Sequence record: ON528729
Source of the DNA: Shigella phage ESh19
DNA length: 64,000 bases
Reading direction: 5' to 3' (one strand)
Both the position numbers and the translations under genes were made by a program. The notes under the pieces are model-generated. The model worked only from the letters and a program-made list of their open reading frames with translations. It had not been told where the DNA came from and did no database searches. Of this stretch, positions 2,239-20,448 are shown piece after piece (the stretch's first letter is position 1; each line of letters starts with the position of its first letter).

Positions 2239-2250
2239 TGTCAAGCCTTC

Positions 2251-2457: not shown

Positions 2458-2507
2458 TTTAGATTCTCCAGTTTAGGATTGTTGGGATGTTTCCCGTTGA
2501 TGCAAAT

Positions 2508-2535
2508 ACTATAAGACTGGATTTATGAAGTCAAC
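2508..2535 (-). promoter_or_regulatory. candidate sigma70-type promoter of the small-gene operon
   Basis: minus strand GTTGAC(T)-N15/16-TATAGT about 50 nt upstream of ATG at 2457. Confidence 0.4.
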
Positions 2536-2708
2536 AAAATTTTTAAAAATATTTTTGATGTTTCGTGAATAGAACGCACGTATGCGGATACACTAAAACA
2601 GGAATCTAGTCAAGAATTATTTTTGAGTTCTCTACAAATTTTTCTCTTGACTTTTGGGAGGAAGGGGAGTAAGAGGGGATGGTGGGGCTGGCTTCCTACA
2701 GCTACCTA

Positions 2709-2934
2709 CCTGCACAATTCGAAAATGAATTTTCCCTTTGGAGTCCAACTGCATCTGCACAAATTGAAAATGAAAAATCCCTTTGGAGTCTAGACCTGCA
2801 CAAATTTGAAATGAATTTTCCCTTTGGAGTTCAGCTAAAGAAATCTGTCCAGAGTTCTATGCAACTATACCTGCACAAATTTAAAATGAAAAAGCCCTCC
2901 TTACCTGAGATTTTAAACTCAAACTTTGGAGGGC
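2709..2934. repeat. degenerate direct-repeat array (4 copies of ~37 bp unit CCTGCACAAATTnGAAAATGAAnnnnnCCCTTTGGAGT)
   Basis: copies start at 2709, 2754, 2795, 2870; the fourth carries a 25 bp insertion; non-coding (indels break frame). Confidence 0.7.
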
Positions 2935-2935
2935 T
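2893..2935 (-). terminator. possible long-loop terminator after macrodomain gene
   Basis: GCCCTCC...GGAGGGC inverted repeat followed on minus strand by T-run; loop is long (25 nt) so weak. Confidence 0.25.
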
Positions 2936-2960
2936 TGTCTATGTCTATGTAGGTGACTTA

Positions 2961-3755
2961 TTAGTTACGTGCTTCAACATAGTTTACGTTTTCATGTGTG
3001 ATATAATCTTCTGCAAACTCTTCTGTAGTCGAATTGATATACACACTTGCATCATCACCAAACGTTACCGCTCTGTGGTGGTGACCTTGTAACGGGTGGG
3101 TAACTTGAGCGTTACTTCGATTGTACTTCTCAACCGGAGGGTAACTGGTGTGTACCTTGCCATTACGCTTCACCTTGAGGGTAACTTTATCCTTGCCTAC
3201 CACAGCAACACCATCAAAATATTGAGGCTCACTGAAGTTCTCCCAACCAGTAACAGGACTAGTCAACTGACTGTACATCTTATCTTCATAGACATACATA
3301 TATACGTCAACATCTTTCATAGTCTGATTAATAATGGACAGCACAGCCATACTATCAAGACCACCAATCCCTGCACAAATCATAGGAAGCCCAACTTTCT
3401 TAAGTTGGTTGACTTTGCAGTAATTATTCAGACGCTGCAAAGCTGCTTCTAAAGCATTGTACCGTGCATCTTTGCCAGTGATAACCTGAGTATAAAGGTT
3501 AGCAATCCGACCCTGCTTAAAACGTGCTACAGAGATGTTACCAAGCATTAGGTGCTTAGGGTTATGATTTTCACCACCTACTGTAGCATAAACCTCAGCG
3601 TCAGTTTCATAAGCTTTTGGGTAGCGTTTAGCAATTGTTGCTGCGATACCTGAACCCATCAAGTTCATGCAGTTACAACCGTGACCAATGATATCAAACT
3701 TCTTACCATCAAAGTCTTTAAAGATATCACCTTTAATAATTTTTACGATACCCAT
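2961..3755 (-). CDS. macrodomain protein, TARG1/DarG-like ADP-ribose hydrolase fold, with extra C-terminal domain
   Basis: KGDIF..DIIGHGCNCMNLMGSGIAATIAKRY matches TARG1-type macrodomain signature (catalytic Lys in KGD, G-rich phosphate loop); start re-set to ATG 3755 (MGIVKII), since track start 3812 overlaps the upstream gene and lacks an SD. Confidence 0.6.
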   Translation of the reverse strand: MGIVKIIKGDIFKDFDGKKFDIIGHGCNCMNLMGSGIAATIAKRYPKAYETDAEVYATVGGENHNPKHLMLGNISVARFKQGRIANLYTQVITGKDARYNALEAALQRLNNYCKVNQLKKVGLPMICAGIGGLDSMAVLSIINQTMKDVDVYMYVYEDKMYSQLTSPVTGWENFSEPQYFDGVAVVGKDKVTLKVKRNGKVHTSYPPVEKYNRSNAQVTHPLQGHHHRAVTFGDDASVYINSTTEEFAEDYITHENVNYVEARN

Positions 3756-3756
3756 A

Positions 3757-3957
3757 TTAGTAATGCTCCCAACGTTCGTTATCTTCAGAGGGTTTAACTC
3801 GGTTACCTTCATGGTCTACCCATAAAGCACCACAGCCTTCACAGATTACTGGCATTGCTGAACCAGCTTCAAACTCTGCTTTTGTAAAGAGACCTTTTAA
3901 GTCTCCTGTATCTTTTCCAAACATCTCAACAGAACACTTAGTGCAGAAATCAGCCAT
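3757..3957 (-). CDS. small zinc-ribbon protein (66 aa)
   Basis: CxxC ... CxxC pairs (CTKCS, CEGCG). Confidence 0.5.
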   Translation of the reverse strand: MADFCTKCSVEMFGKDTGDLKGLFTKAEFEAGSAMPVICEGCGALWVDHEGNRVKPSEDNERWEHY

Positions 3958-4210
3958 TTGAGATTACCTCTTGTAAGAATACTCTGTCACCGTATCTTTC
4001 CTTAATGAGGGTCTTCCAATATCCGAGTTCCTCTCTTAGATAGCCCCTGTCAATATAGTGACAAAAGTCACCAGCCTTAAAGTGGCTATGTGATAGTACA
4101 GAACCTTTATAGATTCGTGAACCAAATGGCATCACCTCATCCCTTCCAACAAATATAGCCCCTGCTAACACTTGACGTGTAACTTTACTTCTTACCAGAA
4201 TTGCTTTCAT
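3950..4210 (-). CDS. hypothetical protein (86 aa)
   Basis: ORF in operon, short overlap with neighbours. Confidence 0.45.
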   Translation of the reverse strand: MKAILVRSKVTRQVLAGAIFVGRDEVMPFGSRIYKGSVLSHSHFKAGDFCHYIDRGYLREELGYWKTLIKERYGDRVFLQEVISNG

Positions 4211-4511
4211 ACATCACCTTTTCAGTTAGCTCAAACAGGTCAACATGTTCGATGCTTTCAATATGGATACCAACTTTTGCATAGCGTTCTTTAACATTCT
4301 CTGCATTAAGCCATATCAGACACCAATGATTCTCTATGGATTCTTCAAGCTTGTCAACACAATCTTTAAAAGATTTCATATCTCCACGAGTGCCAATGAA
4401 TGCAACAACCCCATAGAGAAACTCTTTACCACTGTGACAGACTTGTGCTGTACCAATTTCTTTTTCACCATCTGAAAAGACGGCTACATAATTCTTACCA
4501 TCTAGTTGCAT
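4185..4511 (-). CDS. hypothetical protein (108 aa)
   Basis: ORF in operon. Confidence 0.45.
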   Translation of the reverse strand: MQLDGKNYVAVFSDGEKEIGTAQVCHSGKEFLYGVVAFIGTRGDMKSFKDCVDKLEESIENHWCLIWLNAENVKERYAKVGIHIESIEHVDLFELTEKVMYESNSGKK

Positions 4512-4513
4512 AA

Positions 4514-4786
4514 TTACTCTCCAATGAAGAACTTAACCCTGCTATTTCTTTTTAGGTCAGTGAAGTTAAAGAAGAAGTCTTTACAGTTAGAGCGGCCTTT
4601 CCTTTTAACCCCACAAAACTTTTGTTGGTATGTCTTCTTCTTAAACTCCAGATTACAGCATGGGCATTTAATCAAATCACCTACCTTGGCATTTGCATTA
4701 AGATAATACCTTGTTAGACAAATGTCCATTCTTTGTTGCAAACCTAAACCAGAGTTCATTAGATTGTTTTGGTGTATAACATACAA
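4514..4786 (-). CDS. hypothetical Cys-rich protein (90 aa)
   Basis: CPCC and C..C motifs; ORF in operon. Confidence 0.45.
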   Translation of the reverse strand: MYVIHQNNLMNSGLGLQQRMDICLTRYYLNANAKVGDLIKCPCCNLEFKKKTYQQKFCGVKRKGRSNCKDFFFNFTDLKRNSRVKFFIGE

Positions 4787-4909
4787 AGGAGATTTTGGAA
4801 AATCCTTTTGTGTATACTCTACAGTTGTTTTAGAGACCTCACCAAGAGGTCTCTAAACTCTGCCTTTAAATCTTGAAGTTCAGCCCAACGGTCTGCATCA
4901 TCTGCACAA

Positions 4910-5071
4910 TCACCCATTTGCAAGAACCTCTTTAATTTGTTGGAGTAAGGCTGCTGAGGATTCTTCCCAGAGTGTTAAACCCTCTATAGAGCCTACACAA
5001 CTTTCTCCAGCTTCATTGTAACGAGAATCACCATACTCTTCAATCAGTTTAAGCAACTTTTGCTTGTCCAT
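4910..5071 (-). CDS. hypothetical protein (53 aa; track ORF 4910-5212 trimmed to internal ATG)
   Basis: ATG 5071 with SD GAGGAA 6 nt upstream, immediately after stop of 5073-5342 gene. Confidence 0.4.
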   Translation of the reverse strand: MDKQKLLKLIEEYGDSRYNEAGESCVGSIEGLTLWEESSAALLQQIKEVLANG

Positions 5072-5072
5072 G

Positions 5073-5342
5073 TTATTTCCTCGTTTTAAGGACTGCATAG
5101 ATTTCTTTAGAATCTTCCCCAAACCATGTGTAGTGATTCTCGTTGATTTCAGGATGGTTGTCAACACGTATTTTGCAATCTCTTCCAACATGTTTAAGTT
5201 GTGCAGAAACACCCTGCATAAAGATGTGACAAGTTACATCATCCATAACCGTTGGCATAATGTCAAATCTCATGTAAGTGTTACTTGGTCTTGGTAACAG
5301 AAGATAACCTTCCACAAAAAATGTTTCATTCTTCTCTGTCAT
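5073..5342 (-). CDS. hypothetical protein (89 aa)
   Basis: ORF, stop/start coupled with o-spanin gene. Confidence 0.45.
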   Translation of the reverse strand: MTEKNETFFVEGYLLLPRPSNTYMRFDIMPTVMDDVTCHIFMQGVSAQLKHVGRDCKIRVDNHPEINENHYTWFGEDSKEIYAVLKTRK

Positions 5343-5608
5343 TGCTGCTTATTCCCTAACAAAATCATATCAATTAAATTGTTTGCCTTAATAGTGCATT
5401 CATAGTAACCATCACGATAAAACTCAAGAGCACTTGCAAGGTCTTCACCTTTAGTGCCTTTAACCTCATATCGTGCTTCTTCTTGAGTGTACTTGTCACT
5501 CTCACTTACTTGGGAGTTTTTGAAGGTACTGTTCACTTTGTTCGTTGAACACCCTGACATAAGGCTCAGTAGCACAATCATTAATAAAGACTGTCTTAGT
5601 TTTTTCAT
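5339..5608 (-). CDS. putative o-spanin (outer-membrane lipoprotein, Rz1-like)
   Basis: lipoprotein signal MKKLRQSLLMIVLLSLMSGC with lipobox; gene starts inside 3' end of i-spanin gene in another frame (overlapped architecture). Confidence 0.5.
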   Translation of the reverse strand: MKKLRQSLLMIVLLSLMSGCSTNKVNSTFKNSQVSESDKYTQEEARYEVKGTKGEDLASALEFYRDGYYECTIKANNLIDMILLGNKQQ

Positions 5609-5849
5609 AGTTCAATACCTCTTTGGTGTGTTTGTTTTTAGCAAGCACATCTTTCAAATCATTTTTGTAATTGGAGCTAAGATTTGATAAACCTTCTTGA
5701 TAAGCATCTTTAGCAACACTAACAAGCTTCTGATTAGTCAACTCTTTCTCGTTAACTTGGCTAGTCTTGTAAGTATAGCCACCCCAAGCACCTACACCTA
5801 ACAAAAACATGATTACAAAAGCTGCTTGACAAAATTCTTTGAATGTCAT
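5502..5849 (-). CDS. putative i-spanin (Rz-like, N-terminal TM + coiled coil)
   Basis: single N-terminal TM (AAFVIMFLLGVGAWGG) followed by charged helical region; overlaps lipoprotein gene; SD GGAGA. Confidence 0.5.
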   Translation of the reverse strand: MTFKEFCQAAFVIMFLLGVGAWGGYTYKTSQVNEKELTNQKLVSVAKDAYQEGLSNLSSNYKNDLKDVLAKNKHTKEVLNYEKTKTVFINDCATEPYVRVFNEQSEQYLQKLPSK

Positions 5850-5868
5850 TTGTCAATCTCCTAGACTA

Positions 5869-5970
5869 TTATAAGATAAAAGGCCAAAAAGCAGGGCAAA
5901 GCATAAGTATGATACCTACCCCTACTATGAGCATTACCAATGATGGTATTATCTTGATAACTTTAATCAT
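5869..5970 (-). CDS. possible small hydrophobic peptide (33 aa)
   Basis: hand-translated MIKVIKIIPSLVMLIVGVGIILMLCPAFWPFIL; ends 19 nt upstream of i-spanin ATG; not in ORF track; sits just after a terminator so expression uncertain. Confidence 0.25.
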   Translation of the reverse strand: MIKVIKIIPSLVMLIVGVGIILMLCPAFWPFIL

Positions 5971-5995
5971 AATATACCCCTTACATAAATGAAAA

Positions 5996-6011
5996 GGCTC
6001 CCGAAGGAGCC
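5996..6011 (-). terminator. rho-independent terminator (GGCTCC-UUCG-GGAGCC + U-run on minus transcript)
   Basis: perfect 6 bp stem, UUCG tetraloop, followed by TTTTCATTT on minus strand. Confidence 0.6.
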
Positions 6012-6023
6012 TCTATAATAACT

Positions 6024-6488
6024 TTAACCAAGAACTTTCGCAAGGACATTTGCTGCCATTGTTGAGGCTTTTGAAGCAGCAGCTACGCCAGCCTTAATGG
6101 TATTGTCCTTAATCGCAGAAACCGTTGCAGTATCTGTGAAGAGGTAAGTGGTAGTTTGAGAACCACTTGTAAAGGAAAGCATAAGAGCAGTTTCCAGATT
6201 GAAAGAACGGTAAGGAGCACCGGATTGTACAATCCCTTTTGCACCTAACTCTGAAGCCATACCCATATCATAGATAGTCATCAGATTTTCTTTATGAGCA
6301 GTAGTTGAACCAACACCCTTAACGTGTTTTGTGACATTCAACATGGCACGATACTCACGAATGTTACCATCAGCTTTCACGTTTACTGCACGAAAGATTT
6401 TACCATCGAAATTACTTTTGATAATCTCACGAACTACCTGTGATTTGTTACCGGAAGCATCGATAGCTACTGTAATAATGTTTTGCAT
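6024..6488 (-). CDS. hypothetical protein (154 aa)
   Basis: ORF with terminator downstream. Confidence 0.5.
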   Translation of the reverse strand: MQNIITVAIDASGNKSQVVREIIKSNFDGKIFRAVNVKADGNIREYRAMLNVTKHVKGVGSTTAHKENLMTIYDMGMASELGAKGIVQSGAPYRSFNLETALMLSFTSGSQTTTYLFTDTATVSAIKDNTIKAGVAAASKASTMAANVLAKVLG

Positions 6489-6499
6489 GGTTTACTCTC

Positions 6500-7195
6500 T
6501 CAGTTTTTAACAAGCATTGTTTTGATGTGTGGTAAGATTCTTTCAACCTTTGCCACGTTCTTCACTGTATCTTCTATAAAGCATACTACATCATAGTAAG
6601 GTAGAATGCAAGACTGAAGCATACGAACTTTTAAACTTTCTGCACTAATCTCATTGTCACCAAATCCACGCATAAACAGTAGGAAATCACTGTCTACATT
6701 CTCATTCAGGAAAAGATGTGTGACAACTCTTTGTGATTCTCCACGAGCAGTTAAGAATCCTATATCAGCATTTCTTGATATACCACACAGGATGTTAAAA
6801 ACATATGTTGGTTTAGCTCTGCGAGAGTCTACCAAGTTAGTATACTGTGAGTAAGTGCCGTCATCTAACAGAGTTGCATTAAGTTTCTTGTCAAAGCTTG
6901 TAAGAACACCATCAATGTCTGCTAAGACCATTTTACGTTTTTCTTCCAAGTTCTTTGCAACCAAGATAAGACTATTACGACCAACATATACAGTTTTACC
7001 TGTTAGCAAATCCTGACAAGGAATCTGTGTCTTTGTTGAGTGGAAGTCTTCAAAGCTACACACAACATCTCTTGCTGTATCTGCAAAGTCAGCTTTAGCA
7101 ATATCTGACCAACTTGCAGAACTGATATCTAAATCAAGTGGCTTGATATCATAAGCATGACACAGAACCATGTCAAATTGTTTTGATTCGCTCAT
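6500..7195 (-). CDS. HAD-superfamily phosphatase-like protein (tentative)
   Basis: MVLADIDGVLT resembles HAD motif I (DxDG[TV]); located mid-protein, N-terminal domain unassigned. Confidence 0.4.
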   Translation of the reverse strand: MSESKQFDMVLCHAYDIKPLDLDISSASWSDIAKADFADTARDVVCSFEDFHSTKTQIPCQDLLTGKTVYVGRNSLILVAKNLEEKRKMVLADIDGVLTSFDKKLNATLLDDGTYSQYTNLVDSRRAKPTYVFNILCGISRNADIGFLTARGESQRVVTHLFLNENVDSDFLLFMRGFGDNEISAESLKVRMLQSCILPYYDVVCFIEDTVKNVAKVERILPHIKTMLVKN

Positions 7196-7721
7196 ATTTT
7201 ACCTTTTTAATGTTTGTTGCAAACTCACATTGAGCCAGCAGTTTCATGTTATTGTACACATCTTGAGAGTATTGTCTAGCCTTTGGAATCTTGTATTTGT
7301 AACCAGCATTATAAGAAGCTAGGACACGCTTCATAGAGTACTTTCCATCTGGGTTACCATGAACCTTAGTCCAGAATAATAGCTCCTTATGAGCCTCTTT
7401 CGCTGAGTAATGGAAGTCGCTTACTAGCTTCTTCTTAGCAACCTTTGGAGATACCTTGTTACGCTTTACAACAGTCTTCAAGTGATTTTGGAAAACACCA
7501 TAATCATGAGTCTTTTTATTTTCTAACATGACACCTAATTGTGACTCTTGTAAGGCTATAGCTGCTAAAGGGATTCCCCAACCTTTTCCCATCTGTCCTT
7601 CGCCATAGTCATATGCTTTTAACATATTAACTTTCTGGCTGATTGTAAGCTCTGGACAGTCAGACGCTGTAGCTAAATGTGCTGTAAAGAATAAGCACAA
7701 ACCTAAAACAAATTTCTTCAT
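7173..7721 (-). CDS. secreted lytic transglycosylase (SLT-domain), probable signal-peptide endolysin
   Basis: signal peptide MKKFVLGLCLFFTAHLATA; SLT motifs AIALQES and SYNAGY; start set to ATG 7721 with AGGAG SD. Confidence 0.6.
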   Translation of the reverse strand: MKKFVLGLCLFFTAHLATASDCPELTISQKVNMLKAYDYGEGQMGKGWGIPLAAIALQESQLGVMLENKKTHDYGVFQNHLKTVVKRNKVSPKVAKKKLVSDFHYSAKEAHKELLFWTKVHGNPDGKYSMKRVLASYNAGYKYKIPKARQYSQDVYNNMKLLAQCEFATNIKKVKYERIKTI

Positions 7722-7822: not shown

Positions 7823-8935
7823 TTAGACTTCACGTTTACGCTGAGAAATCAGTTCACCAGCAGTGCCTACAACTACGTGGAGTGCTTCTGAACCATCCCA
7901 CTCTTTGATGATTTCACGGCGACTATTTACAATCGCTGCAACTTCATAACGGGAAGCTCGCATTTTCATGTCGTTGTAGTCAGTTGGTACTGAAACAACA
8001 TCACGAGGATGAACACGAACTTTCAGGATAGTGTCACCAGAGAAGCTAGTTACATAATCCCAAGCACCAACGTGCAGACCCTGAGAGCAGGTTACATGGC
8101 GGTTATTATCAACCATCCAACGTGGCATCTCTACAATGTTACCCAAATCATTTGGAACTTTGCAGGTACGAGAGTCAAACAGTTTACCACCACGAGTTGT
8201 GACTTTCTTCCAACCGATGATATAACCTTCTTCATCAATTTCAACATCGAGGTGTGATACGAAGCCCCAAAGTTGTTCTACAGAATCTTTTGATGGGTTT
8301 TCCATCAGTTTTTCGAAGAATGCAATCAGTCGAACAAAACCATTATCACCTTTCTTCATCATATCCAGAATACGGTCTACCAGAGTTGAGCGCATCTGAA
8401 CAGCACCGTAATACAGGTTGTCGCCTTTGATGGTTACAGCACCCTGAGTGAAGTTCTCAATAGACTTGCGAATGTTCATCAGTTCAAAAGCTTTCTTGTA
8501 CTCACCTGAAACAACAGCCATTACAATATCAGTGTAGTTAGGGTGAGTTGACTCAACAATCTCAGACTCTGCACCGAAAGTCATGATAACAGAATCACCA
8601 GTAATCATGTACTCAATCTGGCTGTTATTCTGCATTGCTTCATGCAGAGCATTTACAGGTTCTGCTTTGACTGCTTCTTTAACAGCTTTTGCAACAGGCT
8701 TCTGCTTAGATACTTTCTTGGTCGCTTTAGCTTTCTTTGCAATATCTTTCAGAGTCTTTGCAGGTTTTGCTTTGGTTTTCCCTGACAGCAGCGTTGCTTC
8801 ATGACGCTCTACAGCACGACCTACCGAACGGGTTGAAGTGTTATACTTCAGAGCGATTGCAGTTTTGGTCAGTTTACCTTCTTTAACCAGTGCATAGATT
8901 TCTGCGTCGATTTGTGCTTTAGTCTTAGTAGTCAT
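7823..8935 (-). CDS. rIIB: rIIB protein
   Basis: C-terminal block CSQGLHVGAWDY..KVRVHPRDVVSVPTDYNDMKMR and central LVDRILDMMKKGDNGF match remembered T4 rIIB; directly downstream of rIIA. Confidence 0.8.
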   Translation of the reverse strand: MTTKTKAQIDAEIYALVKEGKLTKTAIALKYNTSTRSVGRAVERHEATLLSGKTKAKPAKTLKDIAKKAKATKKVSKQKPVAKAVKEAVKAEPVNALHEAMQNNSQIEYMITGDSVIMTFGAESEIVESTHPNYTDIVMAVVSGEYKKAFELMNIRKSIENFTQGAVTIKGDNLYYGAVQMRSTLVDRILDMMKKGDNGFVRLIAFFEKLMENPSKDSVEQLWGFVSHLDVEIDEEGYIIGWKKVTTRGGKLFDSRTCKVPNDLGNIVEMPRWMVDNNRHVTCSQGLHVGAWDYVTSFSGDTILKVRVHPRDVVSVPTDYNDMKMRASRYEVAAIVNSRREIIKEWDGSEALHVVVGTAGELISQRKREV

Positions 8936-8985
8936 TTCAATATCTCTCTTTGTTGTTTAAAATTACTTAGTGGTTCGTATTCTAA

Positions 8986-9001
8986 GGGGCTTTTCAGCCC
9001 C
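8986..9001 (-). other. GNRA-tetraloop hairpin (GGGGCU-GAAA-AGCCCC on minus transcript) between rIIA and rIIB
   Basis: identical 16-mer recurs at 13847-13862; no U-run follows. Confidence 0.5.
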
Positions 9002-9014
9002 TGTCAAACTATTT

Positions 9015-11387
9015 TTATTCCCAACAGTTGGTATCTTCTGGGATGCTCTTAGTGTCAAAACCTAAAAACTTACCAACTTCGACGGGTGATACTTTATTCC
9101 AATCCAGATTAGAAAGCAAGAAGTTTTCTTTACGGCGTTTCTCAAAGTAATCTTTGAACTTGCTTTCAAGACGCTTCTTAGCATTATCCAGTACCTTTCT
9201 TGGCTTACAAGAACCTCTCATATTCCTGCGAATGGTATCAAGAGTGCTGGTGATATCTTTGTAAGCAACTGGTGCAGCAGTGTATGCCAAGCGTCCAAAC
9301 ATTGCTTCTATAGCCTCTTCATTCCCCTCTAAGAAGATAGTCTTCTTAAAGTCTTTACTGTACATGTGGCCTCTGGACTTACGTTTATCAGCAAACATAA
9401 AGTTTCGAGAAATCACATTACAATCAGTGATATCATGATTATTTGTCATGTACTGATATGTCAAGTAACGATGATACTCAATCCAATGAGTGTTATCAAT
9501 AAAATCTTTCAATACTTGTTCATTGACTTCTGTCCAATCTTCAGGAATCTTTTTCCAGTTGGCTTTACGGAAGACATAAACTGACTGTCCAGTTAACTCT
9601 GTCATCAACGTTGCAGCACGTTCTGGTGAACATGAGAAGATTCCACCAATCACTTCATCACTCTGTGCTTTGATATACAGTTGTGGTTCTTCAATCTCGT
9701 CAAAGTTCTCTTTAACCTCTGTATAGCGAATCATGTCGGTATTTGGACATATAAATGCTTTATACAGTTTTACAACACCACGTACAATAGTACGTTTTTC
9801 ATAGTGGTGTTCTTTAGATGACATTGTATGCACACTTAACAGACTTTTGTCAAGCATATGTAAATCTACAAACTCATCAAATTGCTGCTGACTGCTGAAC
9901 AAGAAAGCAATACCATTGTAGCGACGGAAGTTAGAGTCTTCCTGTTCACGGTCACGGCAAGCCCCACGGATAATCTGGTTTTTACCAGTTGTCTTTTCAG
10001 ACCCGTTCTTGTTTCGACGGTCATTGATAAGGAACAAGTAGTTGCTCAACTTATCTTTACTCATCGCTCCAAAGATACTAAACATTGCTGCATCTTGTGA
10101 ATAAGTCGCTGAAGTTGCCCGAATACGGTTCTCCAGACTGCTGTACTTGTAGTATGCTACAGGTTCATACAGATTACCAATATTAGGAACTGGATTACCA
10201 TCTTTATCAAGCCTCAAGTTACCCGCATCATCTTTCAAGAATGACGGAGAACCATCTGCTTCAGTTAACTGACCACGACGAATACCTAACAGTTTTTGTT
10301 CAAGCTTTTTCAAGTTCTGGCCTTGCCATTCCAGAGAATCTTGAACGTGATTAAAGATTTCACGAGCCTCTTTCCTCATGGTATCGTAAGCCTGTGCAGC
10401 ATCAATCAGAGTTGGCTTGTTAGCAATCTCTTTTACCACATCTTCTACGATTGTCTTAGTGATTTTCTTCACAGCTTCAACAATCTTAGTTTTGGTAGTC
10501 TCATTCATCTGCAATGCTTCACGAGATGCAGCAATAGCTACTGAACCAATTGGCATGTAGATGTTAACAAGGTCTACAGCACTACGGAAGAACTGAGGCA
10601 GAATGCTTGTAAACTCTGAACCAAGCAACTCACCCATTTCAACCGGATAAGCAATGTTACCCATGATTACATTGAAATGGACGCTGTTACTATTTGAGCG
10701 CCAGTTCTCTTTGTACTTCATTGCATCATAGACACCATCTTCACGAGAAATGGAAGTCATTGCTTCAAGAATGTCATAGTACTCAACATTACACTCTGGC
10801 TTAACTTTAAAGTACGAGTATACATTGCTCGCTTCTTCATGAAACTTGTTAATACGGTTATCAGATACCGCTACTCGAACAGCTAAACCATTTGGCTCTG
10901 TAGTTGGGTTAGTAGTCAACTTAGTTACTTGAGGGATACCATTCTCAAGGTAAACTGAGTATTTGTTAACTACACCATCAACATAGCTCGATACAGTGAA
11001 TGACTGAGCAATTGCAAATGGTGACTTTGAACCGATACCCATAGCACCAATGTAGTCATTTGAATCGTTCTTTGTGGATTCTCCATAGGTCATGTAAAGT
11101 TTCATAACTTTTTCATGAGTCAGCCCTGTACCAAAGTCACGAACTTCAAAGAATGGTTCAAAACGAGTTGGTAAGTGAACCAAGAAAGGTTTATCAACAT
11201 TACCAGAATCAATGTGAGCATCTACTGCGTTACATGATAACTCACGAATTACAGCACGTTCTTTATATGTGTAAACACCTGAGCTTAGAAGACTGAACAT
11301 TTCAGGTGTCATCTTAATTTGAGCCTGAGAGGTTTCCAGTGTACTTGAGCTTTTAATTACCGTTGCGTGGTCATTTACCATGCGCAT
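9015..11387 (-). CDS. rIIA: rIIA protein (GHKL ATPase-like N-terminal domain)
   Basis: N-terminal RAVIRELSCNAVDAH and DYIGAMGIGSKSPF blocks match remembered T4 rIIA / HATPase N-box and G-boxes. Confidence 0.85.
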   Translation of the reverse strand: MRMVNDHATVIKSSSTLETSQAQIKMTPEMFSLLSSGVYTYKERAVIRELSCNAVDAHIDSGNVDKPFLVHLPTRFEPFFEVRDFGTGLTHEKVMKLYMTYGESTKNDSNDYIGAMGIGSKSPFAIAQSFTVSSYVDGVVNKYSVYLENGIPQVTKLTTNPTTEPNGLAVRVAVSDNRINKFHEEASNVYSYFKVKPECNVEYYDILEAMTSISREDGVYDAMKYKENWRSNSNSVHFNVIMGNIAYPVEMGELLGSEFTSILPQFFRSAVDLVNIYMPIGSVAIAASREALQMNETTKTKIVEAVKKITKTIVEDVVKEIANKPTLIDAAQAYDTMRKEAREIFNHVQDSLEWQGQNLKKLEQKLLGIRRGQLTEADGSPSFLKDDAGNLRLDKDGNPVPNIGNLYEPVAYYKYSSLENRIRATSATYSQDAAMFSIFGAMSKDKLSNYLFLINDRRNKNGSEKTTGKNQIIRGACRDREQEDSNFRRYNGIAFLFSSQQQFDEFVDLHMLDKSLLSVHTMSSKEHHYEKRTIVRGVVKLYKAFICPNTDMIRYTEVKENFDEIEEPQLYIKAQSDEVIGGIFSCSPERAATLMTELTGQSVYVFRKANWKKIPEDWTEVNEQVLKDFIDNTHWIEYHRYLTYQYMTNNHDITDCNVISRNFMFADKRKSRGHMYSKDFKKTIFLEGNEEAIEAMFGRLAYTAAPVAYKDITSTLDTIRRNMRGSCKPRKVLDNAKKRLESKFKDYFEKRRKENFLLSNLDWNKVSPVEVGKFLGFDTKSIPEDTNCWE

Positions 11388-11420
11388 AAGAATATCTCCT
11401 TAGTTGTCGATGTGGCAAAC

Positions 11421-11449
11421 TATATAATTTTATAGATGCCACTGTCAAG
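11421..11449 (-). promoter_or_regulatory. candidate sigma70-type promoter upstream of rIIA overlapping an inverted repeat
   Basis: minus strand TTGACA-N17-TATATA; GTGGCA/TGCCAC inverted repeat (11412-11441) spans spacer and -10. Confidence 0.4.
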
Positions 11450-11629
11450 TTACTTTTTAAATTTCTTTCCAGTTCCATTGCAGTAAGGGCAACAATGTCC
11501 TATACCAACTAACCCAGAACCCTCACACCCATCACAAGGTTCAGTCTCTGAGAAGTACTTGCATAGTAACACTGCAATAGCAACAATACAACCGAGTGAA
11601 AGAACAATTTCTAACCAATAACCTTGCAT
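11450..11629 (-). CDS. small membrane-anchored protein with DnaJ-type zinc-finger repeats (59 aa; below ORF-track cutoff)
   Basis: hand-translated MQGYWLEIVLSLGCIVAIAVLLCKYFSETEPCDGCEGSGLVGIGHCCPYCNGTGKKFKK; two CxxCxGxG repeats; SD GGAGA 6 nt upstream. Confidence 0.35.
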   Translation of the reverse strand: MQGYWLEIVLSLGCIVAIAVLLCKYFSETEPCDGCEGSGLVGIGHCCPYCNGTGKKFKK

Positions 11630-11958
11630 ACCTTGTCTCCTATAGTTCTGAATAGGACAAAACTCCTGTCATGGACAATACTCGAAGATACTGCAAAACT
11701 ATTCTCAAGTATCTTTTTGTTTGGATTGTAAAATTCTTCTTGAAACAAATCAAGAGCTTCTTGATGGTTCTGTGGAAGACCTTTGATATAAACCTTCAAA
11801 GTAACCGTTGTATAAATCTCAGAAGCTAACTCTGATTGTGCTGCTTGAAACAGTTCATTGATAAACTTATGACCATCTTCATGTCGCTTGATGTTTTCCC
11901 AACGTTCTTCAATGATTAAATTAACATTCATCTGTTTAATTTTCATAGTAATCTCCAC
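11611..11958 (-). CDS. hypothetical protein (115 aa)
   Basis: ORF after terminator, SD present. Confidence 0.5.
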   Translation of the reverse strand: MEITMKIKQMNVNLIIEERWENIKRHEDGHKFINELFQAAQSELASEIYTTVTLKVYIKGLPQNHQEALDLFQEEFYNPNKKILENSFAVSSSIVHDRSFVLFRTIGDKVCKVIG

Positions 11959-11968
11959 AAATTAAAAA

Positions 11969-11984
11969 GGCTCCTACGGGAGCC
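11969..11984 (-). terminator. rho-independent terminator after Nampt gene (GGCUCC-CGUA-GGAGCC + U-run)
   Basis: stem-loop followed by TTTTTAATTT on minus strand. Confidence 0.6.
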
Positions 11985-11999
11985 TCTTATCATACTGTT

Positions 12000-13826
12000 T
12001 TAAAGTTGCTTGTCAATAGTATTTCGAACATCACGCAGGTTAACGTAACCATAAGGTTGCGAGTTACTAAATACCAGTTTCAAAGCACTATGACAATTGT
12101 CAATTGCACCTTCAAACTCTGCAAAGCCAAAACCATCTACAGCTACTAGCTTGTCACCATCCCACATAGGGACGACTCCACCAAAAGCAGACTTCTTAAG
12201 ACCACTGTCAGTTTTAGGGTCTTTAGCCAGCATAATTTCTTGACCATCCATCTGTGCAAGAGTTGCTTTAACAGCAAATGCAAATGTGTCACGAGTCAGG
12301 TACTGATAGGTGTATGAGCCTACACCAAACACTACGTTAGAACTTGCAAAACCTTTATCAGCAAGACGTGACAGAATCTCATTAGCCCTTTCCAGAGTGA
12401 TAGAATCACCGTAGATTAGTCCAATGTGCTCATCCAGTACTTTGTACCCTTTGGAGTTAACAGTGCCACCAAAGATGTTATACAGCGTGTGGATAGCTCC
12501 ATCAATTTCTGCTGTTAACATACGCTTCACAGTAAACTGTCCAGTTTTCTGAGCGGTAATCAGGTTGATTGTATCAATATAATCAAAATCTTCATTTTCA
12601 GCAACCATCTCATATCCTTCAGAGATTAACCAAGCAGAGAACCCAAAACCAATATCAGACATTTCACAATTCAAGATTGTGTCATGCAGATGGGTATTAT
12701 CTGGTGCAAGACCTTTCATGTGCTTGTAGAACATTGACTTAGCAGTTTCCCATTCAACGGCTTTGTAACCTGTAACAATGTGAACAGGGTCTCCAGAGTC
12801 TGGACGAATTACCAACTTACCATCACGATTCAGAATTACATTACGTAGCTCTGGCAGAATCTCTGTAACAGTACGCCAGAAGTTGTAAGTATCTGAAACA
12901 ACACTTGCAATACCAGTTGGATATACGTCTACCAGTAAATGCTCAAAGGTTTTAACCTCACCACGCCAACGTTTTGCATCCAGCAAGCTATCAGACCGCA
13001 TGATGTACTGTGAATGAATATCTTCCTCTGACAAGTCTTTCATATTCCATGAAATGTTTGCGCACATCACAGAGTGTTCAGTAGCTGGTACAGAGTTGCC
13101 GATATCACTTACTTCCATAAACTGACCATAAGAACGTTTAGCAGTGTAGACAGCAGGGAAGCTGTCAGTACCTTTAAAGCTTGTCAGGTGTCCTACTGCG
13201 TTAAACGCATCATCTGTGAAGCCAGACATGCCACGCATTGCAAAGTCATGACACTGCCAAGGTAAATGGGAGTCGTTGTCACAGGTTAAATCAGCCCATT
13301 GCTTACAAATACGTTTGTAATGCAGTGCAATAGTTGCAATCGTACAAGCTTTCCAGATTTCAGCAGAGAAAGCATCTTCAAGGTAACCAGCTACCCAATG
13401 GAATCCCTCTACAGTATTTTTGAAGACAATCATCGGGACACGCATAGGGACAATTGTACCTTCCTCTACAGAGTAGACTTCAACAGGTAGGTAACCCAAG
13501 TCATGAAGTTCTTCCCAATGTTGACGACCAATAGTATCTGCACCAAGGACACCATTCATGATTTCCAAGATTTCGTCAATGGCTTCTTTCTTATCACGTT
13601 CAAAGAACGTTGCATTCCAGTGGTCTACCAGATAGTCTTTTACAAAACGCTGAATACCAAAAGCTACAACACCATCAATCTCTAACGGAGAGTTAAACCA
13701 TTTATCTCCACGAGGTGTTAAGTTCAACATAAGATACTGTGTAGCATCTGGATACTGATAGATATGACCCGCTTTATAAGCATCTGCATTAAGACCTGCT
13801 GGTACTGCATAGATTGATTTAGTCAT
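12000..13826 (-). CDS. nadV: nicotinamide phosphoribosyltransferase-family enzyme (Nampt/NadV-like; possibly nicotinamide ADP-ribose transferase)
   Basis: blocks YKAGHIYQYP, HDFAMRG..SFKGTDS, PATEHS, VVSDTYNFW, IRPDSGDP, GVGSYTYQYLTRDT align with eukaryotic/bacterial Nampt; 608 aa, longer than canonical ~490 aa. Confidence 0.8.
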   Translation of the reverse strand: MTKSIYAVPAGLNADAYKAGHIYQYPDATQYLMLNLTPRGDKWFNSPLEIDGVVAFGIQRFVKDYLVDHWNATFFERDKKEAIDEILEIMNGVLGADTIGRQHWEELHDLGYLPVEVYSVEEGTIVPMRVPMIVFKNTVEGFHWVAGYLEDAFSAEIWKACTIATIALHYKRICKQWADLTCDNDSHLPWQCHDFAMRGMSGFTDDAFNAVGHLTSFKGTDSFPAVYTAKRSYGQFMEVSDIGNSVPATEHSVMCANISWNMKDLSEEDIHSQYIMRSDSLLDAKRWRGEVKTFEHLLVDVYPTGIASVVSDTYNFWRTVTEILPELRNVILNRDGKLVIRPDSGDPVHIVTGYKAVEWETAKSMFYKHMKGLAPDNTHLHDTILNCEMSDIGFGFSAWLISEGYEMVAENEDFDYIDTINLITAQKTGQFTVKRMLTAEIDGAIHTLYNIFGGTVNSKGYKVLDEHIGLIYGDSITLERANEILSRLADKGFASSNVVFGVGSYTYQYLTRDTFAFAVKATLAQMDGQEIMLAKDPKTDSGLKKSAFGGVVPMWDGDKLVAVDGFGFAEFEGAIDNCHSALKLVFSNSQPYGYVNLRDVRNTIDKQL

Positions 13827-13846
13827 CTTTTTATCTCTCTCAAAGT

Positions 13847-13862
13847 GGGGCTTTTCAGCCCC
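13847..13862 (-). other. GNRA-tetraloop hairpin between Prs-like and Nampt-like genes (identical to 8986-9001)
   Basis: GGGGCTTTTCAGCCCC exact repeat. Confidence 0.5.
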
Positions 13863-13870
13863 TAAAGTTT

Positions 13871-14770
13871 TTATTCAATATTTGCTACGGTCACTTGTGA
13901 GAAGTGGGAAAGACCACGGTCTTTTTCATCCCCTAGTGAGTTTGTAGTGTAGATATGGTCGATACCATTGTCAAGGAGATTTTCAACACCTTTAGAGAAA
14001 ATCCCATGAGTGACATACAGTTCTACACGTTCTGCTCCAGCTTCACGAAGATACTTTGCAGCCTCGATAAATGTTCGACCACCGTCACAGATATCATCCA
14101 GAATCATGACGGTCTTACCTGTCAAGTCTACATCATCAAGGATTCGCATACCAGTGATTTCACCAGTTTTCAGGTTTCGTACCTTAGCCATTGTAATGTA
14201 AGGTTTCTCAACCTCTTTAGCAGCCTCTTCAGTCTTCTTAGCTGCACCTGCATCTGGAGCCACTAAGTAATCAATGCGTGGGTCACTTGCAAAGTGGACT
14301 GCTGCCTCTTTTTGAGGGAGGTTGTAGAAGCTCTTAAACAAATTCTCTGCAACATTACTGTGAGTATCCAGAGCACATACTGCATCGAACTCCATAGCAT
14401 TTACAAGATTTGCAAAGACTTTAAGTGCTGCTGCATCACCTTTAAACATGTGACGGTCATAGCGAGCATTTGGTAAGAATCCAAAGACAACAGTTTTCAG
14501 GGTTGCTTTCTGAGGAATCAAACGGTCAATTGCTTCTTTAGCCATAGCCAATGCAAAGAGTGTGTCTTTGTCATAACCTTGTACAGTGAATATTACGTTT
14601 TCAATCTTACCAGCAGCATGTTCAGCAAAGTCTACTAAGTCTTCTGAGAAATTACCACCAATCTCCCCAGAAGGGAACTGGATAATGTTGAAGGTCTCTT
14701 GGTGAGTACCTTTGGAATTTGAATTAATCAGGACTCGAATAGTAGTTTTCATAATATCTCTCTCAGTCAA
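13871..14770 (-). CDS. ribose-phosphate pyrophosphokinase-family enzyme (Prs-like; possibly ADP-ribose pyrophosphokinase)
   Basis: PNARYDRH and VMILDDICDGGRTF resemble Prs divalent-cation and PRPP-binding loops; adjacent to Nampt-like gene. Confidence 0.75.
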   Translation of the reverse strand: MTERDIMKTTIRVLINSNSKGTHQETFNIIQFPSGEIGGNFSEDLVDFAEHAAGKIENVIFTVQGYDKDTLFALAMAKEAIDRLIPQKATLKTVVFGFLPNARYDRHMFKGDAAALKVFANLVNAMEFDAVCALDTHSNVAENLFKSFYNLPQKEAAVHFASDPRIDYLVAPDAGAAKKTEEAAKEVEKPYITMAKVRNLKTGEITGMRILDDVDLTGKTVMILDDICDGGRTFIEAAKYLREAGAERVELYVTHGIFSKGVENLLDNGIDHIYTTNSLGDEKDRGLSHFSQVTVANIE

Positions 14771-15041
14771 AAGTTACAAACGTTACAGCCATAGCTGATT
14801 TACATTTCTTTGGGTCTACAATGTGGTAGATAACTGAACAGTTTCCTGTTCCGTCTGGTACTGGTTTTGTCCAAGTACGTTCAATATTTGGTTCTCCAAA
14901 TTCTTTATAGAATCCGTTGGAGTAGTGGTCTATCATCTCAATAGCGAGTGCATCTGGGACGTGACCACGTATCATATACATCTCACTACCATTTCCAGCT
15001 TCGCTAATAAGCTCTTTGATATCCCATTGTTCTCTAGCCAT
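14763..15041 (-). CDS. hypothetical protein (92 aa from ATG 15041)
   Basis: track start is TTG; ATG 15041 has GAGG SD. Confidence 0.4.
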   Translation of the reverse strand: MAREQWDIKELISEAGNGSEMYMIRGHVPDALAIEMIDHYSNGFYKEFGEPNIERTWTKPVPDGTGNCSVIYHIVDPKKCKSAMAVTFVTFD

Positions 15042-15549
15042 GATAAGTTGCCTCATAAACTGTCTCAAGCTTCAACAAGAGTGATATTGCCAGAACTGCA
15101 TATTCCCTGTCAAGCATTGGTGGCATATTATTTTTAAGATATGCTTTCTGTTCTTCCCAAGTCATCTTAGGGGCTTCTGGAAGCTTCTCTCCCTGCTTCT
15201 GGTTATCTTCTTGAGTCTGGATAAACCAGTTAGAGCAATGGTGCTCTCCACCTTTTGTCACGGGCTTATGGTGACCTAACGTGAAAGCTTTCTTTCCAGA
15301 ATATCTACAAAGTTTATTAAGGGTTGCAATGGTGTTCTTGACAACACAATATTCATATAGGTTATCAATAGTGTAGTGAGGGTAATACTGGAACAAGGCA
15401 CTGTCACGGAACTTACCACGGTTCCAAAGCACCATGTGATTAGAATTTGAAGGGTCATACTGATGTGACTCGATGAACTCTTGACGCTCATCAAAATCAA
15501 GACGAAGAACAGACATTGCAGCAGCACGTTTCAGATTTGAATGGTACAT
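15034..15549 (-). CDS. HNH endonuclease-like protein
   Basis: LGHHKPVTKGGEHHCSNW fits HNH core (His-His ... Asn with flanking Cys). Confidence 0.45.
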   Translation of the reverse strand: MYHSNLKRAAAMSVLRLDFDERQEFIESHQYDPSNSNHMVLWNRGKFRDSALFQYYPHYTIDNLYEYCVVKNTIATLNKLCRYSGKKAFTLGHHKPVTKGGEHHCSNWFIQTQEDNQKQGEKLPEAPKMTWEEQKAYLKNNMPPMLDREYAVLAISLLLKLETVYEATYHG

Positions 15550-15568
15550 GATTTCTCCAAAATAAAAA

Positions 15569-15588
15569 GGGAACCTTTTACAGTTCCC
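15569..15588 (-). terminator. rho-independent terminator (GGGAAC-UGUAAAAG-GUUCCC + U-run)
   Basis: stem-loop followed by TTTTTATTTT on minus strand. Confidence 0.55.
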
Positions 15589-15601
15589 TAATCATATACG
15601 T

Positions 15602-15913
15602 TTACTGAGCTATTTTCAAGACTTTTAAGAAACCTTCCTCACCAATTGCATCATAAACGTTTTCAGTTGGCTTGATAAGGTTGTTCAAGCATACAATTTT
15701 CTTACGCTTCTTGTCATAAGTAAGCTTCAGTTGTTTCAACTCTTTGTCATCTTCAGGGTGCTCGTTGTACATCTTCACAGCTTCTTTAAAGCTAATGTAG
15801 CCACCACCTAAAGTAAGGAAACCCGTACCACAATAGTGGGAGTTGTGTTTATCAGCCATAAACTGGCACAGGATAGAAATCTGAATTTTACGAGTGTTAT
15901 AAATCTTTTCCAT
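15602..15913 (-). CDS. hypothetical protein (103 aa)
   Basis: ORF. Confidence 0.45.
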   Translation of the reverse strand: MEKIYNTRKIQISILCQFMADKHNSHYCGTGFLTLGGGYISFKEAVKMYNEHPEDDKELKQLKLTYDKKRKKIVCLNNLIKPTENVYDAIGEEGFLKVLKIAQ

Positions 15914-15924
15914 TTTAGTAATCC

Positions 15925-16182
15925 TTACTTGCTACGTTTACGGTTGCGAGCTTTTTTAGCTGCACGTTTAATTGCTGCTGCACCAGTTTGGCGATGAGCT
16001 TGCTTCTTACCACCTTTACCACGTCCAACATGGATGTAAGGTTGCTGTTCAATCTGGCTTGCAAGAACCTGTGCAACTGCTGAAGCATCTACTCCAACCT
16101 GCTTACCAGTCATTGAAACGATAGCTGCTGCTTTTGCCAGAGCCGCTAAGAAACCTGCTTTCATGTTTGAAAAAATACCCAT
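15925..16182 (-). CDS. hypothetical Ala-rich protein with basic C-terminus (85 aa)
   Basis: ORF; C-terminal KRAAKKARNRKRSK. Confidence 0.45.
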   Translation of the reverse strand: MGIFSNMKAGFLAALAKAAAIVSMTGKQVGVDASAVAQVLASQIEQQPYIHVGRGKGGKKQAHRQTGAAAIKRAAKKARNRKRSK

Positions 16183-16197
16183 TTTAATATCTCTCTT

Positions 16198-16476
16198 TTA
16201 AAGTTTAATACAGAACTGGTCTAGTTCTTCTTTTTCAATACAGACTTGTATGTTTCCGTATCTTACATCAGTGAAAAGCATTAGTCCATCCCCAAGTGTT
16301 GATTTTTCTTCAACTGTGAATGTTACCTGCTTAACAAGTGCAGCTAAAGCCGTTAAGCCATTCTCACCAAATTTTTCTTGAGTATAAACCATCCAAGCAT
16401 CAAGCTTGTTGATGTTATAAATCCACTTACCAGAGTAGCTATTCTGCTCTCCATTGACAGTCGCCTTGCCAGCCAT
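16198..16476 (-). CDS. hypothetical protein (92 aa from ATG 16476)
   Basis: ATG 16476 with GGAGA SD; overlaps 3' end of nrdG by about 38 nt. Confidence 0.4.
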   Translation of the reverse strand: MAGKATVNGEQNSYSGKWIYNINKLDAWMVYTQEKFGENGLTALAALVKQVTFTVEEKSTLGDGLMLFTDVRYGNIQVCIEKEELDQFCIKL

Positions 16477-20012: not shown

Positions 20013-20213
20013 CTACTTAGAAAACTTTTCAATAAGCTTTTTAAGCTTTCCACTCAAATCATGTTTGATATCTAATATCTCAAAGATAACCCATACTAGC
20101 ATAGCTCCAAATAGAGCACCTTGTTTTAAATCAGTAAACAGGCTAGTAACCATGAATGCCAGAGCAATCATCGGAGCATCTTCAACAAAACCATCCCATA
20201 AACGTTTAAGCAT
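20013..20213 (-). CDS. small membrane protein (66 aa)
   Basis: hydrophobic core MIALAFMVTSLF..LFGAMLVWVIF. Confidence 0.4.
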   Translation of the reverse strand: MLKRLWDGFVEDAPMIALAFMVTSLFTDLKQGALFGAMLVWVIFEILDIKHDLSGKLKKLIEKFSK

Positions 20214-20448
20214 TATTCACCTCTGCCATAAAGTTCTGTAGTGTTCCAACAGGTTTCATTTCATTGTCTTCAACCTTCATAATGAAAGGCATCTGACGAA
20301 CAGGTATCTTTGCAATATCCATCAGGTCACTTAGCTCATAATCTTTCCCAAGCATTCTAACAACATGGTCTAAGCCACGAGCCTGAGCAAAGTTCTTAGC
20401 AGTCACACACTGTGGGCATCCATCTTTTGAGTAAATTACATAAGTCAT
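20206..20448 (-). CDS. glutaredoxin/NrdH-like redoxin
   Basis: CPQC active-site motif near N-terminus, 80 aa, between nrdB and nrdD. Confidence 0.7.
   Translation of the reverse strand: MTYVIYSKDGCPQCVTAKNFAQARGLDHVVRMLGKDYELSDLMDIAKIPVRQMPFIMKVEDNEMKPVGTLQNFMAEVNNA

Follow-up and report, generated by a model that had tools for sequence, protein, structure and literature searches.

The window analysed here, a stretch of 64,000 nucleotides (nt) from Shigella phage ESh19 (sequence record ON528729), encodes on its minus strand two adjacent genes, adps and namat, whose products belong to the Prs and Nampt families and which together very probably constitute the NAD+ reconstitution pathway 1 (NARP1) operon of a Mooglevirus phage. 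The downstream gene, namat (12000–13826), appears in the list of open reading frames (ORFs) with a length of 608 amino acids (aa), and its product matched the Pfam families NAPRTase (PF04095, E = 1.1e-30) and NAMPT_N (PF18127); orthology, sequence motifs and a structural match point to a nicotinamide ADP-ribose transferase. The upstream gene, adps, encodes a protein with matches to Pribosyltran (PF00156) and Pribosyl_synth (PF14572), for which orthology and a catalytic lysine suggest the function of an ADP-ribose (ADPR) pyrophosphokinase, or ADPR-pyrophosphate (ADPR-PP) synthetase. A first-pass annotation, made from the sequence alone, had described this Prs-family gene as 299 aa long. The corresponding ORF exists (13871–14770, minus strand), but that length counts an upstream TTG as the start codon, and the ATG at 14752 is the likelier start, giving a gene of 293 aa (13871–14752), because a Shine–Dalgarno-like run (GAGAGAG) precedes it, the upstream ORF stops just before it, and the orthologues in phages SFPB, Michonne and Bas63 are all annotated as 882 nt. 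The two genes are separated by a spacer of 44 nt, with namat directly downstream of adps; a NARP1 pair is defined by adps and namat lying within ten genes of each other.

At the DNA level, the region matches Shigella phage SFPB (genus Mooglevirus, subfamily Ounavirinae) at 98.4% identity and other Mooglevirus phages at 93–98%, with Michonne and Sf13 among those at 93–94%, while more than 200 Felixounavirus-like records matched at 60–90%. A T4-type origin akin to that of KVP40 was rejected on these matches. The matching public records label the pair ‘ribose-phosphate pyrophosphokinase’ and ‘nicotinamide/nicotinate phosphoribosyltransferase’.

The closest experimentally studied relatives of the two proteins are those through which NARP1 was discovered, encoded by genes 79 and 80 of Escherichia phage Bas63 (JohannRWettstein, a BASEL phage; record MZ501086) (Osterman et al., bioRxiv 10.1101/2024.02.11.579819). 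Over 293 aa, the Prs-like protein shares 81% identity with Bas63 gp79 (Adps; 501 bits, BLASTP), and the Nampt-like protein shares 75% with gp80 (Namat) over its full length. The flanking gene order is also as in Bas63, running from NrdG through gp77, gp78, gp79 and gp80 to three small genes, rIIA and rIIB, and the two loci further share both insertions in Namat, a Lys–Trp pair in the clamp loop and a stem-loop in the spacer (all described below). They differ in that Bas63 is a Felixounavirus, whereas the window belongs to a Mooglevirus, and in that the first Namat insertion is 15 aa longer here. Deletion of genes 79–80 from Bas63 reduced its plating on cells carrying SIR2-HerA and left NAD+ depleted, ADPR-PP was detected only during wild-type Bas63 infection of SIR2-HerA cells, and the phenotype was retained in a pncC nadR double-deletion host (bioRxiv 10.1101/2024.02.11.579819). 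In an independent knockout screen, single deletions of g79 or g80 cut plating efficiency by 1e4 to 1e6 and could be complemented. The Bas63 genes were dispensable in hosts without defence systems, their phenotypes being defence-specific, and an anti-defence phenotype was also obtained by deletion in FADO. The same preprint that described NARP1 lists the Citrobacter phages Moogle, Michonne and Mordin and Shigella phage Sf13 as encoding Adps together with an ‘Adps-associated’ Namat (bioRxiv 10.1101/2024.02.11.579819, supplementary tables). The system is therefore already known, as the locus is orthologous to the founding example and the genus has already been tabled as a carrier.

The enzymology of the pathway comes from the proteins of Bacillus phage SPbetaL1. 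In vitro, SPbetaL1 Adps converted ADPR and ATP to ADPR-PP (bioRxiv 10.1101/2024.02.11.579819) and gave no measurable product from ATP and the Prs substrate (ribose-5-phosphate in the legend of Figure 2D, ‘PRPP’, that is phosphoribosyl pyrophosphate, in the running text), while SPbetaL1 Namat converted ADPR-PP and nicotinamide to NAD+, and preferred ADPR-PP when PRPP was also offered. Cleavage of NAD+ by SIR2, TIR or SEFIR defence effectors leaves ADPR. By extrapolation from the SPbetaL1 enzymes, Adps would pyrophosphorylate this ADPR at its 1'' position at the expense of ATP to give ADPR-PP, and Namat would then exchange the pyrophosphate for nicotinamide to yield NAD+ directly. Neither a nicotinamide mononucleotide (NMN) intermediate nor an NMN adenylyltransferase (Nmnat) would be required, and the predicted outcome, by analogy with the deletions in Bas63 and FADO, is that the phage could replicate in hosts with NAD+-depleting defences. 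The first-pass annotation had proposed the same sequence of ADPR pyrophosphorylation followed by nicotinamide transfer, and this proposal is supported by the 81% and 75% identity to the Bas63 operon, by the presence of the residues that distinguish Namat and by the lack of a detectable Nmnat gene. The SPbetaL1 operon resembles that of the window in its two-gene architecture, its catalytic residues, the motif of its clamp helix and the catalytic lysine of Adps. In contrast, its Namat is 491 aa long and without the two insertions, its clamp loop carries Arg40 rather than a Lys–Trp pair, and its two genes overlap, whereas those of the window are parted by a spacer bearing a hairpin.

Comparison of the Namat protein with enzymes specific for ADPR-PP was possible at the level of individual residues. 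SPbetaL1 Namat has been crystallised with nicotinamide and with NAD+ (9w5w/9w5x), revealing a ‘selectivity clamp’ that reads the adenine of ADPR-PP (NAR 2026, PMC12774641). When the window protein was aligned with the Namat proteins of SPbetaL1 and Bas63, every residue that contacts nicotinamide or NAD+ in SPbetaL1 was found to be conserved or conservatively replaced (SPbetaL1 to window: D13 to D15, Y15 to Y17, F189 to F195, R192 to R198, D215 to D221, R306 to R341, D308 to D343, G360/D361 to G473/D474, G390/S391 to G503/S504, F392 to Y505, Y396 to Y509 and T398/R399/D400 to T511/R512/D513). The protein also keeps A248, H251 and the catalytic-histidine motif ATEHS, and its catalytic core is thus intact. 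The helix of the selectivity clamp carries the Namat-specific motif GSYTYQYLTRD (codons 503–513; 12288–12320, minus strand), in which the position termed Phi3 is Leu instead of the usual Asn or Val. At the same site, the Nampt of Xanthomonas (Xcc) reads GGALLQKVDRD and NadV of H. ducreyi reads GAQTYQRNTRD, both without the aromatic residues. The clamp loop of the window protein reads TPRGDKWFNSPL, and its K42–W43 pair is identical to that of Bas63, whose loop is of the Lys type with the next residue providing the stacking (PMC12774641). A clamp loop of the Namat kind has either Arg at position 3, or Lys or Tyr followed by a stacking residue, and the window protein has the second arrangement.

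Searches by sequence and by fold both ranked the Namat crystal structures above bacterial NadV and mammalian NAMPT. Among PDB sequences, SPbetaL1 Namat (9w5w/9w5x) scored 418 bits, H. ducreyi NadV 339, Xcc Nampt 171 and mammalian NAMPT approximately 146. An AlphaFold2 (AF2) model of the window protein, with a mean predicted local distance difference test (pLDDT) score of 90.5 and a predicted template modelling (pTM) score of 0.89, had as its top Foldseek match 9w5x, ‘Namat in complex with nicotinamide’, with a target TM-score of 0.94, and Nampt and Namat proteins were the only matches when the complete model was compared with BFVD by Foldseek. On the Nampt side, a comparison with ADPR-specific homologues had been suggested as a check of the initial proposal, and the clamp motif, the K42–W43 loop, the contact residues and the match to 9w5x are all of the Namat type.

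For the Prs-like protein, the comparison suggested for this gene likewise favoured the Adps proteins over E. coli Prs. In BLASTP searches it scored 501 bits against Bas63, 133 against the Adps of Pakpunavirus C11, 90.5 against SPbetaL1 Adps and 67 against E. coli Prs, to which it is 29% identical in the local BLASTP alignment and 26% identical in a multiple alignment. Mutation of K162 abolishes the activity of SPbetaL1 Adps, and its counterpart in the window protein is retained as K190, within the sequence K-V-R-N-L-K-T-G-E-I. Adps proteins share the motif K-x-R-N/D-x-x-T/S-G at this site, where E. coli Prs has KRRPRANV, and the ribose-5-phosphate loop reads DDICDGGRT in Adps versus DDMIDTGGT in E. 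coli Prs. Judging from these alignments, we infer that the differences in the K-x-R motif and the ribose-5-phosphate loop are specificity determinants. The Prs equivalog models of NCBIfam all fell well below their thresholds, the best of them reaching 107.9 bits where 296 are required.

The first-pass annotation had also seen no Nmnat in the window. This was borne out by Pfam scans of 91 window ORFs (20 unannotated, 50 others with a length of 90 aa or more and 21 small ones), which returned no match to CTP_transf_like or NUDIX; for the set of 50, the matches considered were the best 25 of 32 families, the other seven having E-values above 2.8e-8. A search of the remaining genome, proposed as a further check, gave the same answer as far as it can be read from SFPB, the nearest complete genome, where 10 ORFs lying outside the window had no CTP_transf_like or NUDIX match, and the annotations of SFPB and Bas63 list no Nmnat or Nudix gene. 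Similarly, no RyR, NADAR, sponge-like or other domain of NAD+/ADPR counter-defence was found among the 91 window ORFs, within the families that Pfam models and, for the set of 50, among the same best 25 of 32.

These results also separate the locus from the second reconstitution pathway, NARP2, typified by the Nampt and bifunctional Nmnat of Vibrio phage KVP40. NARP2 is similar in that it relies on a Nampt-family enzyme and counters NAD+-depleting defences, but it uses PRPP, makes NMN, needs a phage Nmnat and has no Adps. In the window, an adps gene adjoins namat and no Nmnat was found, and the Nampt homologues of T4-like and Vibrio phages are approximately 28% identical to the window Namat. 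The Nampts of NARP2 form a separate clade, and approximately 94% of the phages that encode one also encode an Nmnat. No phage has been reported to encode both NARP1 and NARP2, which fits the lack of an Nmnat match here. Every feature of NARP1 that can be read from sequence was present at the locus, whereas the features of NARP2, and the operon arrangement that defines the extended pathway NARP1-AP (see below), were not.

Several observations weigh against this assignment. Namat passed the NCBIfam equivalog model NF006629 (‘nicotinate phosphoribosyltransferase’; 465.8 versus a cut-off of 405), and Adps passed the broad subfamily model TIGR01251 (‘ribose-phosphate diphosphokinase’; 131.8 versus 113); family-level profiles therefore fail to separate ADPR-specific enzymes from ordinary Prs and Nampt. 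The Bas63 protein purified poorly and all in vitro enzymology was carried out with the SPbetaL1 enzymes, whose identity to the window proteins is no more than 33% for Adps and 45% for Namat, and the two insertions in the window Namat (approximately 29 and 78 aa) are absent from the crystallised enzyme. A search of literature and structures found no Adps structure and no residue determinants of specificity for ADPR over ribose-5-phosphate, and for this reason the Adps call rests mainly on orthology. In addition, SPbetaL1 Namat makes NMN from PRPP when ADPR-PP is absent, and by analogy the window Namat may have an NMN-forming side activity.

The last of these points also speaks for classical salvage, according to which the Prs-like protein would make PRPP, the Nampt-like protein would make NMN and host NadR or NadD would adenylate the NMN. 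In its favour, too, both proteins score above the curated cut-offs for the Prs and Nampt/NAPRTase families in Pfam and NCBIfam. However, the Bas63 orthologues defeat SIR2-HerA even in the pncC nadR double deletion, with ADPR-PP accumulating in vivo, and the SPbetaL1 enzymes behaved otherwise in vitro, Adps giving no measurable product from the Prs substrate and Namat choosing ADPR-PP over PRPP. The adenine clamp, missing from true Nampts, is moreover present in the window Namat, and the Nmnat that accompanies a Nampt in approximately 94% of phages of the NARP2 type was not found among the ORFs scanned here, so that classical salvage is very unlikely to be the function of the pair. That the Prs-like enzyme instead raises PRPP for phage nucleotide synthesis, with the pairing to Nampt incidental, is scarcely credible despite the nearby genes for NrdA/B/D/G, a dNMP kinase, thymidylate synthase and DHFR, as Namat adjoins 97% of Adps-clade genes, the Bas63 orthologues are dispensable without defence and have defence-specific phenotypes, and the window protein resembles the Adps proteins much more than it does E. 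coli Prs. The assignment to NARP1 thus draws on orthology, gene order, the conservation of catalytic and selectivity residues and the lack of a detectable Nmnat gene.

The Namat of the window is unusually long. The first-pass annotation had put it about 120 aa above the canonical size, in agreement with its 608 aa as against 491 aa for SPbetaL1 Namat, and the alignment attributes the 117-aa excess almost wholly to two insertions. Insertion 1 (residues 258–286; 12969–13055, minus strand) lies directly after the sequence ATEHSVMCAN, is helical in the AF2 model (pLDDT approximately 83) and is 15 aa shorter in Bas63. Insertion 2 (residues 354–442; 12501–12767, minus strand), a net gain of 78 aa over SPbetaL1, lies between the RPDSGDP and GLIYGD strands and forms an ordered alpha/beta lobe in the AF2 model (pLDDT approximately 90–96); searched alone against PDB sequences, it had no match below E = 0.39. 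Bas63 Namat has both insertions, and in other phage Namats the two sites hold insertions that differ in length, while chromosomal enterobacterial homologues have neither. The two insertions could serve in regulation or in the binding of a partner.

The pair had further been described as co-transcribed and flanked by terminators. Downstream, this description holds, as a hairpin resembling an intrinsic terminator, with a 10-bp stem followed by a T-run (11965–11988, minus strand; dG −16.4 kcal/mol, z −4.0), lies directly 3' of namat. Upstream, it requires correction, since the corresponding terminator-like hairpin (15568–15589, minus strand; 8-bp stem, dG −14.4, z −3.2) lies two small genes above the Prs-like gene, and the terminator-bounded unit would therefore comprise four genes rather than two. 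A scan for promoters and terminators over 11300–16300 gave totals that were not above those expected from shuffled sequence (14 versus 11.6 promoters and 3 versus 3.7 terminators), and none of the predicted promoters is put forward. For the two terminators, the case was made not on these counts but on their location, on their fold z-scores and on annotation or conservation in a related phage, and the Michonne record has terminators annotated at both equivalent relative positions.

The 44-nt spacer contains a conserved stem-loop (GGGGCU-GAAA-AGCCCC; 13847–13862, minus strand) with a GC-rich 6-bp stem (dG −12.8 kcal/mol, z −3.1). SFPB, Michonne and Bas63 all carry the same stem, though the flanking proteins are only 75–81% identical between the Mooglevirus and Bas63. 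The stem-loop is followed by only three to four T and so has no proper T-run, and on this ground co-transcription of adps and namat appears plausible. The element itself may be an attenuator, or one that acts in RNA stability or processing. In SFPB and Michonne an extra ORF of approximately 216 nt (SFPB_071; gene 4 of Michonne) is present between the namat terminator and the next gene. The window has no such ORF at 11959–11999 (comparison sequence 20044–20259), which accounts for a 212-nt length difference in the DNA match.

The remaining two genes of the unit are not part of the NARP1 pair. The first (15034–15549, minus strand, 171 aa) is an orthologue of Bas63 gp77 at 77% identity. A knockout-screen preprint reported that gp77 counters the Ec67 retron and called it a GIY-YIG protein (10.1101/2024.10.10.617714); the orthologue here had a weak HNH-like PHROG match only and carries an HH...GG...N...N motif. 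The second (14763–15068, minus strand), similar to Bas63 gp78 and approximately 92–101 aa long, matched phrog_4726 (function unknown) and had no Pfam match. If the gp77 orthologue is counted, anti-defence genes would make up three of the four genes of the unit. Homologues of rIIB and rIIA lie at 7823–11387 on the minus strand, three small genes downstream of NARP1, and in Bas63 the genes g84 and g85 (rIIA and rIIB) were reported in the same screen to counter QatABCD. By analogy with Bas63, this stretch of the genome, with its NARP1 and rII genes, looks like a cluster of counter-defence genes.

The first-pass annotation had linked the pair to a macrodomain protein in an ADPR/NAD+ counter-defence axis. 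This protein (2961–3755, minus strand, 264 aa) matched Pfam Macro (PF01661) and PHROG 335 (‘phosphatase’) and is a candidate ADPR-1''-phosphate phosphatase similar to Adpp. A recent preprint describes aRES, a RES-domain defence whose cleavage of NAD+ yields nicotinamide and ADPR-1''-phosphate, the latter being unusable for NARP1. According to the same preprint, a Poa1p-like macro protein termed Adpp is encoded in 15% of NARP1 operons; it dephosphorylates ADPR-1''-phosphate and so extends the pathway to NARP1-AP, which by definition has its macro gene no more than two genes away from the NARP1 operon (10.64898/2026.01.28.702374). Bas63 is not named in that preprint; its genome retains the macro gene (bas63_0095). 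The window protein is 30% identical to the assayed Adpp of Vibrio phage Gary over the full length of the macro domain (E = 2e-16), and 33% identical to gp018 of Pseudomonas phage C11, a macro protein two genes from Namat that is tabled as NARP1-associated (10.64898/2026.01.28.702374). All three protein families of the NARP1-AP operon of Gary (Adps–Adpp–Namat) are therefore encoded by the window phage, including a macro domain that is Poa1p-like and homologous to Adpp. In contrast to Gary, the macro gene lies approximately 8.2 kb downstream of namat in another transcription unit, with rIIA, rIIB and about ten other genes between, rather than within two genes of the operon, and its product has an extra C-terminal domain of approximately 100 aa. 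This beta-rich extension (residues approximately 165–264; 2964–3263) was modelled with pLDDT of mostly 67–88 and had no Pfam match; it occurs only in Ounavirinae homologues, the assayed Adpp and the macro proteins of the T4 Tk.4 type being without it.

Of the proposed axis, the homology to Adpp thus stands, but the distance, the separate transcription unit and the frequency of the family in phages without NARP1 speak against a connection. The macro family was found in 2,333 phage records, T4-like phages included, most of them without NARP1; among Escherichia phage records, 931 had the macro family versus 192 with a Namat homologue, and in the two closest non-Ounavirinae relatives examined (P0009 and P0014) neither Adps nor Namat was encoded within 8 kb of the macro gene. 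Linkage of the macro family to NARP1 is not supported. The protein may act independently of NARP1, removing ADPR from DNA, RNA or protein in the manner of TARG1 and DarG (for example against DarT-like or other ADP-ribosyltransferase defences) or serving in RNA repair that involves ADPR-1''-phosphate, an interpretation with nearly an even chance of being correct. The top Foldseek matches of the AF2 model were TARG1 and DarG, slightly above Poa1p, and the sole NCBIfam match was to the DarG model (49 versus a cut-off of 250); this fold comparison failed to split phosphatases from glycohydrolases, as TARG1, DarG and Poa1p lay within about one order of magnitude of one another. By sequence, however, the best PDB match was yeast Poa1p (5e-5), which together with the homology to an assayed Adpp tells against an independent role.

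It is also possible, though doubtful, that the distal macrodomain protein is an Adpp that feeds ADPR to Adps and Namat as a dispersed form of NARP1-AP, which would extend the NARP1 assignment to protection against NAD+ phosphorylases of the RES type (aRES). The full-length alignment with Gary Adpp, the homology to the C11 macro protein, the match to Poa1p (an ADPR-1''-phosphate phosphatase to which Adpp, too, is reported to be most similar) and the retention of the gene in Bas63 are consistent with this, as is the motif H-x-C-N-C ... G-x-G-I-A, which is shared and does not vary in the family. Against it stand the position of the gene outside the NARP1 operon, the wide distribution of the family and its context in P0009 and P0014, the slight preference of Foldseek for TARG1 and DarG, the extra C-terminal domain, and the alignment by hand of S30 of Poa1p to a Leu. 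If the dispersed arrangement were real, Ounavirinae phages would resist aRES even though surveys based on operons score them as plain NARP1.

Gene pairs resembling NARP1 also occur in bacterial chromosomes. In Klebsiella michiganensis (GCA_023685665.1; extracted locus 4211–7491), an Adps-like gene whose product shares 42% identity with the window Adps (E. coli Prs, 24%) is directly followed by a Namat-like gene whose 496-aa product is 44–45% identical to the window Namat, carries the clamp motif GSFTYQYNTRD and has no insertions. The pair is divergent from an NrtR gene of the NUDIX+WHD type, with two tandem palindromes between them (5066–5107) that have a GT-N7-AC core. NrtR acts as a repressor of ‘prs-nadV’ operons, from which ADPR releases it, and the presence of a dedicated second prs paralogue in these operons has been called unexplained (Rodionov et al. 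2008, PMC2330246). An ADPR-inducible NARP1 chemistry would explain this second paralogue; a literature search found no paper covering both NrtR and NARP1. The NrtR-regulated operons, and the bacterial NARP1 loci (NAR 2026), resemble the phage pair in that an Adps-like gene directly precedes a Namat-like gene, but they are chromosomal, lie beside the gene for an ADPR-responsive repressor and presumably serve a housekeeping recycling of ADPR rather than counter-defence.

No new mechanism follows from the locus in the window, and its practical value lies in annotation. NARP1 undoes SIR2-HerA, DSR1/2, type I Thoeris, SEFIR and other defences by rebuilding the depleted metabolite, and from its presence one can predict the hosts whose defences a therapeutic or environmental phage is able to overcome. 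The names in public records, NCBIfam and PHROGs hide the real chemistry (PHROGs 448 and 619, like NCBIfam, carry ordinary-enzyme names for the pair), and automated annotation will go on masking NARP1. In the NARP1 locus of C11 (Pakpunavirus; extracted locus 1850–5361), the gene order is Adps, a small ORF, Namat, a second small ORF and a macro gene of the Adpp type, such that small unannotated ORFs are interleaved with the genes of the operon.

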